Assembly: GCA_040389905.1 (NCBI GenBank)
Contig: JAZJZK010000010.1
Span: forward strand, 1 to 64,000
Origin: Gemmatimonadota bacterium
Lineage (GTDB): Bacteria > Gemmatimonadota > Gemmatimonadetes > Gemmatimonadales > Gemmatimonadaceae
Length of the DNA stretch: 64,000 bases
Reading direction: 5' to 3'
Part shown: positions 51,071 through 54,641 of the stretch, in pieces
Layout: the number at the start of each line of letters is the position of its first letter
How positions within the stretch are numbered: the stretch's first letter is position 1
Notes under the pieces: model-generated
Database searches by the model: none
The model's input: the letters and a program-made list of their open reading frames with translations, nothing else
Told to the model about the DNA's origin: nothing
Translations under genes and position numbers: made by a program

Positions 51071-51426
51071 GGGGGCGACAGGCTTCGACGGGACTGGTGC
51101 AGCTGTGGGCGCGTGCCGAGGTACTCGGGCACCTCGTTAAACACTCGGGAAAACATCAACTGCGAACAACAACTTCGCCCTTGCCGCCTAACTTTTAGTT
51201 AGGCCTGCAGGTGCCCTTGAGGAAGCCCGCCCGGGGCGTCTTTTTGGGTAACGCAAATCTGGGCTAGCCCTGCCGAGTGCTCTCGGCGGCGGGGCAAAAC
51301 AAGGAGAGCTTACTCTGCGGTGGGCTGCCCACTGGCCAGCAGCAGGGGACATCAATCGGTGGGATACGCACGTAGTGCCTGTGGTCGATCTAGCTTCGGA
51401 CCGGGGTTCGATTCCCCGCGCCTCCA
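51071..51426 (+). ncRNA. ssrA: tmRNA; tag ANNNFALAA* at 51162-51191; CCA not encoded
   Basis: GGGGGCG/CGCCTCC acceptor stem with G3:U wobble; TTCGAC after the 5' stem; T-arm CGGGGTTCGATTCCCCG; tag ORF ending LAA. Confidence 0.97.
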
Positions 51427-51439
51427 CTGAACAGCAACA

Positions 51440-51474
51440 CGAAAGAGCCGAACGCGCTGCGTTCGGCTCTTTCG
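51440..51474 (+). terminator. Hairpin terminator after ssrA
   Basis: CGAAAGAGCCGAACGC-gct-GCGTTCGGCTCTTTCG, a perfect 16-bp stem. Confidence 0.8.
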
Positions 51475-51539
51475 GTATCCGCCGTCCGCTTTGTCCGCAG
51501 AACTGGCGCATCGAGATGGGTACGCGCGCCGCTGAAAAC

Positions 51540-51568
51540 TTGCCCTGCGGCGACGCCCGACGCATTCT
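51540..51568 (+). promoter_or_regulatory. Putative promoter of the half-SecY gene (leaderless geometry)
   Basis: TTGCCC-N17-CATTCT, then 6 nt to ATG 51575; no Shine-Dalgarno. Confidence 0.5.
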
Positions 51569-51574
51569 CCTCAG

Positions 51575-52165
51575 ATGAAACGTTTCTTCGAGCACGCGCG
51601 ACGGCTCGCCTGGCTCGCCGCCGGCCTCCTCGGGGCGAAGCTGGTGCTGGGCATCTCCGTTCCGCTTCCCGACGCGACTGTCCTGTCGAAGTACTTCGAT
51701 GGTAGCGCTGGGCTCCTGGGGTTGTACAACCTCATCGTTGGCGGCGCGCTGGCGAAGGGATCCGCCGTCGCGCTCGGACTCATGCCGTATCTCTCCGCGC
51801 GCTCGTTCGTGTTCCTCGCGCGCGCGGCAGGCATCCGCACCAAGTCCGCCAACCGAGTCAGTGACAAGTGGTTGACGCGTGGGCTTACGGTGAGTTTCGC
51901 GATCGTTCAGGCGATCGGATACGCGCGGTTGACGCAGACGCTTCCCGGTGTGGTGAGCGAGCCAGGCGCGCTCTACATGGCGCAGATGGTTGTGATGCTC
52001 ACCTCGGTCTCGACGCTGCTGATGCTGTTCGCCGAGGAGGCGACATCCGCCGGCGAAGACGAGAAGCACGAGCCACCGCTCCTCGGCGAAGCAGCCGCTG
52101 AGCATCGGAGCGCGCGCAGGGAGCGCGATCCGCTCTACGTCTCGCACCCGACGCCGGCGCCCTGA
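51575..52165 (+). CDS. Stand-alone SecY N-terminal-half homolog (TM1-TM4 plus charged tail)
   Basis: [26 protein letters not shown] resembles SecY [42 protein letters not shown] resembles [26 protein letters not shown] resembles FLMWLGEQIT. Confidence 0.82.
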   Translation: [196 protein letters not shown]

Positions 52166-52523
52166 GCGTTTCCCATGGCGAGTTGCGCGCGTCGCCTTCG
52201 CAGGCCTGAGGAACTGCTCCATCGGCAGCGCAACAATTGGTGTTGCGGACTTGCAGCAGAACGGGGGAAAGGCATTTGGCGAACCGCGCGTGAGCGGTCG
52301 GCAAGTATATATGCGGCAACAGCTTATGTGCGTAATGCTCGCGCATGATGCATCGTACGGAACTTGCGTTTGCGCGCGTATCCCGAGTGCAAGCGCGGCG
52401 ACGCTGAACGTGACCGTACGCACAGCCATGTAGCGCAGCGCGCGGTACGTTCGGGAACTCGAGTCCCTCTGCGTCAATCTTTCGCGCGCCGAACGCGCGT
52501 CCCCCAGATTCTTCGTCTCGTCG

Positions 52524-53615
52524 ATGTCCGATAGAAGCATTGCTTTAGCACGCTGCATCGTTGCACTTGCCCTCCTCGTCGGCGTGCCGACGCGTACCAC
52601 CAACGCGCAGAGCGCAGATTTGACGGGCGATTTCGCGAGCGCCATCGTGGTGTCCGATCTCACGAACTCGTACAACAATCCGATCTACGCGGCCAGTGTG
52701 GTATCGGGCTCGAACTACAGCGGCATTGCAGTGCTCTGGTTCTACTCCTCCGGCGGAACGCTATTGTCGGGCTGCACGGGATCGAATCTTGGCGGCGGGC
52801 GCATCCTGACGGCGGCGCACTGCGTGAGCAATGGAACGAGCCTTACGTCGGCCAGTGTGAAGGCTCGATTCTATCAGGTCGGCAGTGGTTGGGTCGAGGT
52901 GACTGGCCCGGCGTCCGGATACGTCGTCAAGCCGGGGTACTCCGGCGGGGTTGTCGAAGAGAACGACGTCGCGGTGTTGAAGCTGTCGAGTTCCGCACCG
53001 TCCTTCGCGCGCTCCTACTCACTCGCCGCGGGGAACGCCCTCGGAGCAACCGAGATATTCGCGGGGTACGGGCGCACCGGGACGGGCAATACCGGTGGCA
53101 CCGTCAGCACGATTTTCACCAGCAACCCGCCGCTTCGCACGGGTCTCAACATGTTCGAGACAACGTGCATCAGCGGTAGCAGCATCACCTGTGCGACGTC
53201 GTCCAACTCCGCCTTCGGTGAGTTTGGCGGCATCCTGCTCTCCGATTTCGACCACACAGGTGCCAGCGACGCCGGCTTCATGTGCACGACGCTGCATTTT
53301 TGCGGGCTGGGCTACAGCGGGAATGAGGAGGTTACCATCGGGTCGGGTGACTCTGGCGGAGCGTCCTTCTTGTCGGACTTCTCGATCACCGGCGTCGCGT
53401 CATTCGGGCAGACCAACGGCTCCGGAATCGGCGGCTTCTTCGGTTACGTCGAGGGCCACACCTGCGTGACCTATTACGAGGCCAACGGCGGGTGCACATC
53501 GAACTACGAGTTCGTTGCTGAGCAACTCGCGCCGGAACCCGCGACGATCGTGCTGCTTGGCACTGGGTTGATCACCGCGTTTGGATTTGCTCGCCGCCGC
53601 CGGCGGGGCGCCTGA
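52524..53615 (+). CDS. Trypsin-like (S1) serine protease with PEP-CTERM anchor
   Basis: Signal peptide; catalytic triad motifs LTAAHC, DVAVLKL, GDSGG; C-terminal APEPATIVLLGTGLITAFGFARRRRR. Confidence 0.9.
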   Translation: MSDRSIALARCIVALALLVGVPTRTTNAQSADLTGDFASAIVVSDLTNSYNNPIYAASVVSGSNYSGIAVLWFYSSGGTLLSGCTGSNLGGGRILTAAHCVSNGTSLTSASVKARFYQVGSGWVEVTGPASGYVVKPGYSGGVVEENDVAVLKLSSSAPSFARSYSLAAGNALGATEIFAGYGRTGTGNTGGTVSTIFTSNPPLRTGLNMFETTCISGSSITCATSSNSAFGEFGGILLSDFDHTGASDAGFMCTTLHFCGLGYSGNEEVTIGSGDSGGASFLSDFSITGVASFGQTNGSGIGGFFGYVEGHTCVTYYEANGGCTSNYEFVAEQLAPEPATIVLLGTGLITAFGFARRRRRGA

Positions 53616-53624
53616 TCGCGCTCG

Positions 53625-54641
53625 TCAGCGCAGGGTGTCGCGCCGATCCGTGCTCGGGATTTCGCCGGCTGCGTCGTCCTTGCGGCGTTTCTGTGACTTG
53701 AAGATGAACTCCGGCGCGAGCGACACGCCAAGCAGGGTGACGGGAAGGATCTGCTGCGCTTGAATGAGAAAGGCCACGGCGATCGCCTCGTTCTTATCCA
53801 GCCCGAAGGCAACGGCGGCGGCCGCATAGGCGGCCTGAAAGAGTCCGACGTTGCCCGGTGTCGCGCGAAGCGCGAAGCCAAGGTTCACGGCGAGTAGCGC
53901 GGCGATCGTGGAGACGGTCGTCATCGGGAAGTGCGCCGCCTGCGCCGTCATCTGATACGTGGCCACCTGCAGCCCCCACGCGAGCACGCTCAGCGCGAGC
54001 GCCGCGATGAATCTCGGCCCACTCGACACCGCGCCGATCGTACCAACGAAGCGCGAACCGTACTCCTTGAGCCGACCTTGCCACGTGACCGGTTTCGGAC
54101 CAGCCACGGCCTCCACGACGTCAGGCCGTTTCAGCAGCCAGACAAGCAGGGCGCACATGCCGACCAATATCGCGATGGCGACCGGCTTCACCTTCTCCAG
54201 CGATGGAGGAAGCTCGAGGAAGGTTGCGGCGAGTGACAACATGAAGAAGTAGCCCACCAGCTCGAACAGGCGTTCGAGTGCGAGCGTCGCCAGCACCTTG
54301 GCGCTCGGGATGTGTGCGCTGCGCGAGACGAACACCACGCGTGCCGCCTCGCCACCGTTGGCCACGAGGACGTTGTTCAACCCCGCACCCGCGAACGTGG
54401 CGCGCATGGCAAGGGCCAGGGACGTCGCACCGATCGGCCGCAGGAAAACCCACCAACGCACCGCTTTCGTGACGATCGACAGGATGTTCACCAGTGCGGC
54501 CGCGAGCAGCATTGTGCGCGACGCCGACCGCATGCCCGCCCAGATTTGGTGCCAGTTGACCTTCGTCGCGAAGATGACGAGGAAAACCAGGATGACGAGC
54601 GAAAGACCGATGCGTAGCGCCCGCGACACGTTTTGCGTCAT
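53625..54641 (-). CDS. LPG_synthase_TM/UPF0104 flippase-like membrane protein
   Basis: RW...L, N..L...GGE.AR, ER..E, TPGN.G motifs; polytopic. Confidence 0.85.
   Translation of the reverse strand: MTQNVSRALRIGLSLVILVFLVIFATKVNWHQIWAGMRSASRTMLLAAALVNILSIVTKAVRWWVFLRPIGATSLALAMRATFAGAGLNNVLVANGGEAARVVFVSRSAHIPSAKVLATLALERLFELVGYFFMLSLAATFLELPPSLEKVKPVAIAILVGMCALLVWLLKRPDVVEAVAGPKPVTWQGRLKEYGSRFVGTIGAVSSGPRFIAALALSVLAWGLQVATYQMTAQAAHFPMTTVSTIAALLAVNLGFALRATPGNVGLFQAAYAAAAVAFGLDKNEAIAVAFLIQAQQILPVTLLGVSLAPEFIFKSQKRRKDDAAGEIPSTDRRDTLR

Follow-up and report, generated by a model that had tools for sequence, protein, structure and literature searches.

An apparently undescribed four-helix derivative of SecY encoded by stand-alone genes in Gemmatimonadaceae

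Introduction

SecY is among the most conserved proteins, and its helices TM2b and TM3 are those that receive signal peptides. The housekeeping protein has ten helices, and its C-terminal half carries the lateral-gate helix TM7 and the loops that engage the ribosome and SecA. A SecY half is described as five helices, with H1/4/5 arranged in a YidC-like bundle and N.H5 touching C.H5; in this account, H1/4/5 also build the groove of both YidC and proto-SecY (Lewis and Hegde, bioRxiv 2020.12.20.422553). A conserved basic residue in YidC keeps an inner-leaflet groove hydrophilic (PMC8920935). Two further systems are relevant here, i.e. SecY2 of the SecA2-SecY2 system, a second SecY-family gene beside the housekeeping copy with near-identical topology and a locus that includes secA2, asp genes, and cargo (PMC5076819), and engineered split Sec61/SecY, in which an N-terminal piece is a separate chain that pairs with a complementary C-terminal piece (Wilkinson 1997, as cited in bioRxiv 2020.12.20.422553).

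Here, we analyze a gene for a 196-aa protein, P0001, in a Gemmatimonadaceae genome; the window is positions 1 to 64,000 (64,000 nucleotides) of contig JAZJZK010000010.1 (GCA_040389905.1). Housekeeping SecY is its best match in sequence and fold, with a homologous TM1-plug-TM2b-TM3-TM4, and its family shares Y51, F78, W100, and F116 specifically with the SecY of its own lineage. P0001 lacks TM5–TM10, including TM7, and therefore three of the four pore-ring positions, the hinge, and the ribosome and SecA loops. It also differs from housekeeping SecY in its basic TM2b residues, its acidic tail, its location outside the spc operon, and its rarity. A first-pass annotation of this DNA had named it a "half-SecY"; that name does not hold structurally, because a SecY half has five helices and the family ends after H4, without H5.

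Unlike SecY2, which keeps all ten helices, P0001 has four helices and no conserved neighbors, and it scores 19.4 and 18.1 bits on the SecY2 models against cut-offs of 353 and 249.6. Split mutants have a complementary C-terminal piece, whereas no stand-alone TM5–10 gene was found in any of six carrier genomes checked (this one and five others that are 92–100% complete). The likeness to YidC/Oxa1 and proto-SecY would be one of analogy, i.e. both would be open, one-sided membrane proteins whose cytoplasmic-leaflet portion carries a basic patch, but P0001 by its sequence lacks H5. Among the papers listed by full-text searches on truncated, short, split, duplicated, or Gemmatimonad SecY, no title or abstract opening describes such a family, and a term search of the survey of dual SecA/SecY systems (bioRxiv 202358) returned no mention of Gemmatimonads. 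A conserved four-helix SecY derivative is apparently undescribed; a passing mention may exist.

Results and discussion

A gene that matches SecY up to the end of TM4

The gene and the parts of its product are as follows, with residue numbers in brackets:

51575..52165, plus strand: P0001 gene, stand-alone, encoding a SecY TM1–TM4 protein of 196 aa (ORF and homology)
51578..51658, plus strand: N-terminal helix and TM1 (model helix 2–28; model and family alignment)
51674..51745, plus strand: conserved periplasmic amphipathic helix (34–41) and Gly-Gly plug helix (47–57) (model and alignment)
51764..51826, plus strand: TM2b lateral-gate helix (64–84) (model and alignment)
51854..51940, plus strand: TM3 (94–122), with R102 and the near-invariant Q112 (model and alignment)
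51968..52048, plus strand: TM4 (132–158), with the conserved E154 at its end; the SecY loop and TM5 are absent after it (model and alignment)
52037..52162, plus strand: acidic, Pro-rich tail of 42 aa with no further membrane helix (alignment; low model confidence)

The reading frame is uninterrupted, and its codon score is +41, compared with -119 and -78 for the other two plus-strand frames. P0001 matches the SecY model TIGR00967 (E 2.9e-14; residues 10–160 on model positions 3–159 of 414) with 52.8 bits, against an equivalog cut-off of 253.6, and Pfam SecY (PF00344; E 1.3e-7; residues 64–160 on 2–94 of 306) with a score slightly below the curated cut-off. In the PDB, SecY matches at E 1.5e-12 and E. 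coli SecY at E 3e-12, the latter with residues 8–160 aligned to 20–182, and a search of the ESM Atlas returned SecY-domain clusters only. Judged by these alignments, the homology of P0001 to SecY is far beyond chance. The first-pass annotation had proposed an ORF colinear with the N-terminal part of SecY, and the significant profile matches bear this out; the motif pairs it quoted are present in the E. coli SecY alignment. The match stops at the start of the SecY TM4-TM5 loop, and the acidic, Pro-rich tail that had been noted does follow, with a length of 42 aa past Glu154 rather than about 35. The tail is presumably cytoplasmic.

An intact secY, which the same annotation had suggested looking for, is found elsewhere in the genome (contig C7) amid the ribosomal genes of the spc operon, and P0001 is 34% identical to its product over 143 aa. 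Using this SecY as query, tblastn finds no further TM5–10 piece in the 84.6%-complete genome. The annotation had also raised the concern of a misassembly concealing the C-terminal half. This is unlikely, because a Logan contig from the probable source run, built from the same reads by another assembler, has 0 differences from the window over 51400–53800. No RNA run contains the P0001 gene at a useful share, and the RNA reads of two runs cover essentially the tmRNA only, which has no bearing on the expression of the gene.

A family with one cut point and a patchy distribution

The first homolog search produced 15 proteins of 167–226 aa, i.e. homologs of the short form do exist, and a profile search over 1.84 billion representatives, of which the best 150 were taken, led to a family alignment of 72 proteins. 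Core identity in this alignment is 26–88% (median 41%), mean identity to the SecY of the lineage is 39%, and Pfam SecY matches 71 of the 72 members at E<=0.01. All 72 end at the same cut point after TM4, with TM5 absent. The TM4-TM5 loop motif is found in none of the 72 tails and a membrane helix in none of the 71 that were scored; after Glu154 the tails measure 17–88 aa (median 51), and they are Pro/Ala-rich and, over the first 20 residues, acidic. A stop codon is visible in the DNA at 21 intact loci (13 genomes and 8 metagenome contigs, two of them near-identical), while for members known as proteins only it is not visible in DNA. No C-half match lies downstream at 16 family loci, and fused or longer forms number 0 at E<=1e-40 among 8000 candidates of 491–2000 aa, the latter being weak evidence. 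A scan of metagenomes recovered 8 family loci among the best 80; the best 80 loci in genome contigs were all non-family, swamped by normal SecY. Many family genes are named "preprotein translocase subunit SecY" in databases, and this annotation hides the four-helix family.

The gene is rare in the genomes that we screened. There are 13 intact and 2 frameshifted copies (G694 and G714) in 5 genera, representing 6–10% of each fully screened genus. Specifically, 5 of 55 genomes of the own genus carry it (one frameshifted), as do 3 of 31 in g43 and 5 of 87 in g63 (one frameshifted). Across Gemmatimonadaceae, at least 7 of 401 genomes have the gene, with 7 candidates scored per genome, and none was found in 229 genomes from 11 other families of the phylum, with 10 candidates scored in each. 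Eleven genomes flagged as unpublished enter these denominators only, and none carries the gene. NCBI assigns one member to a Gemmatimonadaceae bacterium, and we take f1, the family of the host, to be that one.

Other second SecY hits do not belong to the family. Those in G108, G161, G222, G266, G281, G359, G379, and G566 are complementary pieces that fit a split or frameshifted secY; the hit in G749 looks like such pieces as well, and that in G758 is a fragment of normal SecY type. The hit in G530 (family f2; L274:505-2001, minus strand) is a full-length paralog, i.e. a divergent second SecY that matches Pfam positions 2–301 of 306, has a C-terminal extension of about 100 aa, gives no Pfam match to DUF2007 at E<=0.1, and branches outside the four-helix family. 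Separately, G681, from the own genus, has two apparently full-length secY matches (C146 and C38; frames of 462 and 454 aa), reflecting either duplication or contamination.

Origin and selection

In a tree of TM1–4, for which one in four of the non-lineage full-length SecY proteins was sampled and hits had to span TM1–4, 83 short rows (some of them duplicates) form one clade (SH 1.0) with no full-length protein inside. Eight other short hits fall among normal SecY and do not enter the family alignment; fragments retaining the TM4-TM5 motif fall there as well. Because the profile that collected the candidates was itself built from the first homologs, the search was in part looking for such a clade; the informative result is that full-length SecY stays out of it. 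An IQ-TREE analysis of 49 rows, with long branches flagged and without G750 and 3 of 12 outgroup loci, also recovers the 20 family rows as a clade (100/100) and places it inside the SecY group of Gemmatimonadaceae (f1; 94/97, unstarred); the SecY proteins of other phyla and of family f2 branch outside that group.

Sixteen diagnostic columns are evenly divided, 8 favoring the lineage residue and 8 the outside residue. The lineage-type residue prevails at Y51 (66 vs 3 members), W100 (43 vs 1), F116 (42 vs 0), F78 (29 vs 0), and A146 (39 vs 5), and the outside residue is favored at, e.g., L81 (52 vs 13), T138 (60 vs 5), and R95 (25 vs 3). The four-helix gene probably has a single origin, in a partial duplication of housekeeping secY within Gemmatimonadaceae; P0001 is SecY-derived and not ancestral. 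All five own-genus copies form one subclade (99/95), a pattern in these sequences that fits descent with repeated loss, and the copies of g43 and g63 do not cluster by genus, possibly through transfer or poor resolution.

Nei-Gojobori dN/dS of the TM1–4 core is 0.16 (G426/L103), 0.14 (G396/G412), and 0.27 (G031 and G000, the present genome), and the 95% bootstrap intervals of pN/pS in the three close pairs are 0.12–0.31, 0.22–0.41, and 0.31–0.56. Across all comparisons, pN is below pS in 134 of 136 pairs, the majority of which are close to saturation. The tail is far less constrained than the core in the dN/dS analysis, and the core itself changes 2.5–5 times faster than secY TM1–4 of the same genomes (four within-genus pairs). 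As read from these substitution patterns, the four-helix gene is a retained paralog under purifying selection and not a recent fragment. This had been the suggestion of the first-pass annotation, and it agrees with the single clade and with dN/dS of 0.14–0.27, well below 1 in the three close pairs; the homologs that would have contradicted it, i.e. only full-length or decaying ones, are not what the family consists of.

We consider it highly improbable that the gene is a nonfunctional relic or a collection of independently decaying secY fragments, a reading that is largely refuted. Its rarity, its fast evolution, and the frameshifts in 2 of 15 genomic copies would fit such decay, but the members form one clade with one cut point and dN/dS well below 1, their helix cores are free of charged residues, and fragments that are truly random either retain the TM4-TM5 motif or branch with normal SecY proteins.

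Residues kept, lost, and gained

We compared the family with 107 normal SecY proteins (70 from the lineage and 37 others). Of 43 near-invariant SecY positions, 17 are kept in at least 80% of the family, including the plug Gly-Gly, the start of TM2b with Pro71-Tyr72, R102, G115, G131, and L142. The gate residue Q112 in TM3, equivalent to E. coli Q131 in the alignment with PDB SecY, is present in 71 of 72 members and E154 of TM4 in 65 of 72; within the plug, G56 and G57 are each 93% conserved and Y51 92%. Conservation within the family is among the highest in the periplasmic loops and plug, and the outer faces of TM3 and TM4 are variable. Residues lost include F13, Y21, and R22 of TM1, S76 and Q80, and W151, G153, and Q155 at the end of TM4, the invariant Tyr-Arg-x-Gly pattern of TM1 being remodeled. 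The losses in TM1 and at the TM4 end argue against native packing on TM5 or SecE. In 38 of 72 members Glu replaces SecY's invariant Arg22, in each case together with Arg/Lys at 26, and one basic residue is kept at 22 or 26 in 64 of 72; in sequence terms, this suggests a swapped charge pair.

The family has also gained basic residues on TM2b. Arg or Lys occupies position 76 in 58 of 72 members, 80 in 30, and 83 in 52, and at least one of the three sites is basic in 72/72 members vs 0/107 normal SecY. P0001 itself has R76 and R83, and keeps Pro71 and the hydrophobic pore-ring position 73. There are no basic residues at TM2b 64–75 or in the TM3 and TM4 cores of the family, so the confinement to 76/80/83 is not random drift. 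On an ideal helix the three sites fall within about 80 degrees of the face of position 73. They correspond to E. coli S89, Q93, and T96, one to three turns cytoplasmic of I86, which we take to be a pore-ring residue. In Sec61, V85 is named as a pore-ring residue (PMC11186639).

Predicted structure and a possible helix-binding role

An AlphaFold model from the 72-row alignment (pLDDT 83, pTM 0.68) has four long helices, with helical segments at 2–28, 34–41, 47–54, 64–84, 94–122, and 132–158. Foldseek ranks SecY/Sec61 first (TM 0.56, rmsd 4–5 A), and a wide fold search also places SecY at the top (Z 9.9, rmsd 3.5 A, 140 residues), the next unrelated row having Z 7.2. Structure prediction of the monomer, proposed earlier as a check, is thus consistent with SecY as the closest fold; a Z of 9.9 is modest for a helical bundle, and the model departs from SecY by 3.5–5 A. 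No YidC/Oxa1 chain is among the 50 rows listed, an absence that says nothing. The topology is presumably N-in and C-in, with four helices and the plug outside. Charges are distributed as in N-in SecY, with basic residues in the N-terminus and in the TM2b-TM3 loop, which makes an antiparallel homodimer like that of proto-SecY unlikely, as far as sequence can tell. All four helices are less hydrophobic than those of SecY, by about 1.3–2.7 units (Hessa scale).

The reading we favor, tentatively and by analogy, is that P0001 acts as a stand-alone, open "half-funnel" that would bind and steady hydrophobic helices in the inner membrane without a C-terminal half. In the space vacated by TM5 and the C-half, TM2b and TM3 would continue to bind a helix, and Arg/Lys at 76, 80, and 83 would make the former funnel wall a hydrated, basic groove within the cytoplasmic leaflet, comparable to the basic groove of YidC. 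The kept plug would cap this groove on its outer side, and the acidic tail may cover or balance it. Without H5 and the C-half, P0001 should be unable to close a pore, and the ribosome-binding loop is also missing; the role would be that of an optional chaperone or insertase-like helper rather than a pore driven by SecA or the ribosome.

The uniform cut point, the single clade, purifying selection, and the absence of a stand-alone TM5–10 gene in 6/6 genomes all favor this half-funnel, as do the basic TM2b residues of all 72 members, the SecY-like model, the lack of extra secE or secG genes, and the loss of TM1 and TM4-end residues while the plug, Pro71, Q112, and E154 are kept. Several observations point the other way. 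P0001 has no H5, a part of the H1/4/5 bundle that makes the groove of YidC and proto-SecY; its basic residues might line the aqueous funnel of a SecY complex instead, or reach lipid head groups; given the lower hydrophobicity, stable insertion of all four helices is itself a prediction; and the 6–10% presence, the 2.5–5-fold rate, and the 2/15 frameshifted copies agree at least equally well with an accessory or conflict role. We hold the half-funnel, the best of the readings, as somewhat less than probable.

The same surfaces could serve a modulator of SecYEG, which would bind SecY at its C-half or lateral gate, or sequester SecG, PpiD/YfgM, or YidC, and tune export; we regard this as somewhat unlikely. 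The parts that face the C-half are kept (plug, pore-ring position, and Q112), and in Sec61 the TM3 glutamine Q127, which may be the equivalent of Q112, pairs with TM7 N300 (bioRxiv 2022.08.11.503542). An aqueous funnel would easily house basic residues, and single-helix partners sit in the gate of known systems (PMC11186639). A SecY to act upon is also available, with an intact secY in 12 of the 13 genomes that have an intact four-helix copy (none was seen in G018, which is 79% complete). However, the residues that would pack on TM5 or SecE are lost, the outer faces of TM3 and TM4 are variable, and the family drifts fast (mean 39% identity to lineage SecY) while SecY stays conserved. For a modulator acting via YidC in particular, the main YidC contact is SecY TM5 (PMC13434473, 2026 structure), which is missing here.

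There are no extra secE or secG genes in the five genomes searched, secG being present as one copy in 5/5 and secE in 4/5. The secE not found is that of the present genome (84.6% complete); it is present in 4/4 relatives, so the missing match is probably an assembly gap.

A basic groove might also serve a task unrelated to protein transport, e.g. sensing, lipid scrambling, or a regulated leak. This we consider unlikely, although the position-specific basic residues, the lower hydrophobicity of all four helices, and the lack of linkage to any Sec gene or cargo would agree with it; the kept plug, Pro71, and Q112 would then need a reason other than helix binding, for which the fold alone could suffice.

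Genomic context

Four further features surround the P0001 gene:

51071-51427, plus strand: tmRNA (context only), 147 bp upstream of the P0001 gene
51440..51474, no strand assigned (flagged on the minus strand): 16-pair hairpin after the tmRNA
51540..51568, plus strand: weak candidate leaderless promoter (sequence; the scan gave 0 sites)
52524..53615, plus strand: PEP-CTERM trypsin-like protease (profile matches), sharing the variable slot

The hairpin is likely a terminator that separates the tmRNA from the P0001 gene. The candidate promoter comprises a TTG-starting hexamer, a 17 bp spacer, and a CAnnnT hexamer 12 bp before the ATG, with no Shine-Dalgarno. A promoter scan found 0 sites at the P0001 gene and none upstream of the tmRNA either, which indicates that it is insensitive here. 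Of 1439 long genes across the genome, 71 have TAnnnT exactly 12 bp before the ATG, compared with about 7 for other offsets, and only 21% show a Shine-Dalgarno-like motif; leaderless genes seem common in this genome on such motif counts. The first-pass suggestion of a promoter of its own thus survives as a weak leaderless candidate, possible from the motif, but the scan gave no site and CAnnnT at -12 is not enriched (21 vs about 18).

The gene does lie directly after the tmRNA, as had been pointed out, but this position is incidental. None of 24 tmRNA loci from genus relatives, with 0–1500 bp of downstream DNA each and several with little, has a gene of this type downstream, and other family members lie elsewhere. 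In G014 the tmRNA is directly followed by a convergent LPG-synthase gene, an empty slot indicating that what the P0001 gene and the PEP-CTERM protease occupy in the present genome is a variable site. The protease was not seen beside other family members. The 3' side of the tmRNA (51428-53624 here; L277-L300) differs in nearly every genus relative, and the upstream GGDEF gene is conserved; in L280 (G682, own genus) a PEP-CTERM-like gene apparently ends just after the tmRNA.

Family genes are solitary, amid unrelated neighbors in variable spots outside the spc operon. In a Pfam scan of 56 flanking proteins (71 had been called), the only recurrent families are GNAT acetyltransferase and carbonic anhydrase, in one closely related pair; no secA2, asp, glycosyltransferase, or serine-rich repeat cargo gene was found among these 56 or beside the P0001 gene. 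With neither the tmRNA position nor any neighbor conserved, the earlier idea of an export helper for neighboring cargo is unsupported, neighbor families differing by locus except in that one pair. NRPS-type neighbors occur at G426/L103 (a PPTase and large NRPS-like ORFs) and G396 (a condensation domain and GTP cyclohydrolase II). The apparent NRPS linkage (L266, L103, L264) is limited to one related pair (G426, L103) and G396 and was not seen at other loci.

Patchy presence, fast evolution, and solitary genes in variable spots would also suit a decoy that soaks up a toxin, phage protein, or antibiotic aimed at the periplasmic face of SecY. The loops and plug on the periplasmic side rank with the most conserved parts of the family, and CDI toxins enter via SecY (PMC7858069). 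We find this quite unlikely nonetheless, given that the known CDI-resistance site S281 (TM7) is in the missing half (PMC7858069), that the Sec61 inhibitor pocket needs TM7 N300 together with Q127 and the plug (bioRxiv 2022.08.11.503542), and that a decoy should track the SecY of its host, to which identity is 34% here. The neighbors are not mainly defence genes either. PADLOC, run on four proteins, gave 0 matches for three and one weak tail match (E 0.003) for the fourth.

Implications for SecY evolution

The strongest form of the reading that we favor is a natural, stand-alone SecY half-channel, cut after TM4, with an arginine-rewired funnel wall, working as a one-sided, YidC-like insertase or helix chaperone. 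We regard this as rather unlikely. If true, it would run the proposed history from YidC to SecY in reverse, and would mean that the lateral-gate hairpin and plug can work without the C-terminal half.

More generally, a four-helix derivative under selection would imply that the N-terminal gate-and-plug module of SecY is useful alone. The family may therefore offer a small, natural test object for what a partial SecY does by itself, a matter that bears on the common-origin model of YidC and SecY, and for whether bacteria make dedicated translocon modulators or decoys.
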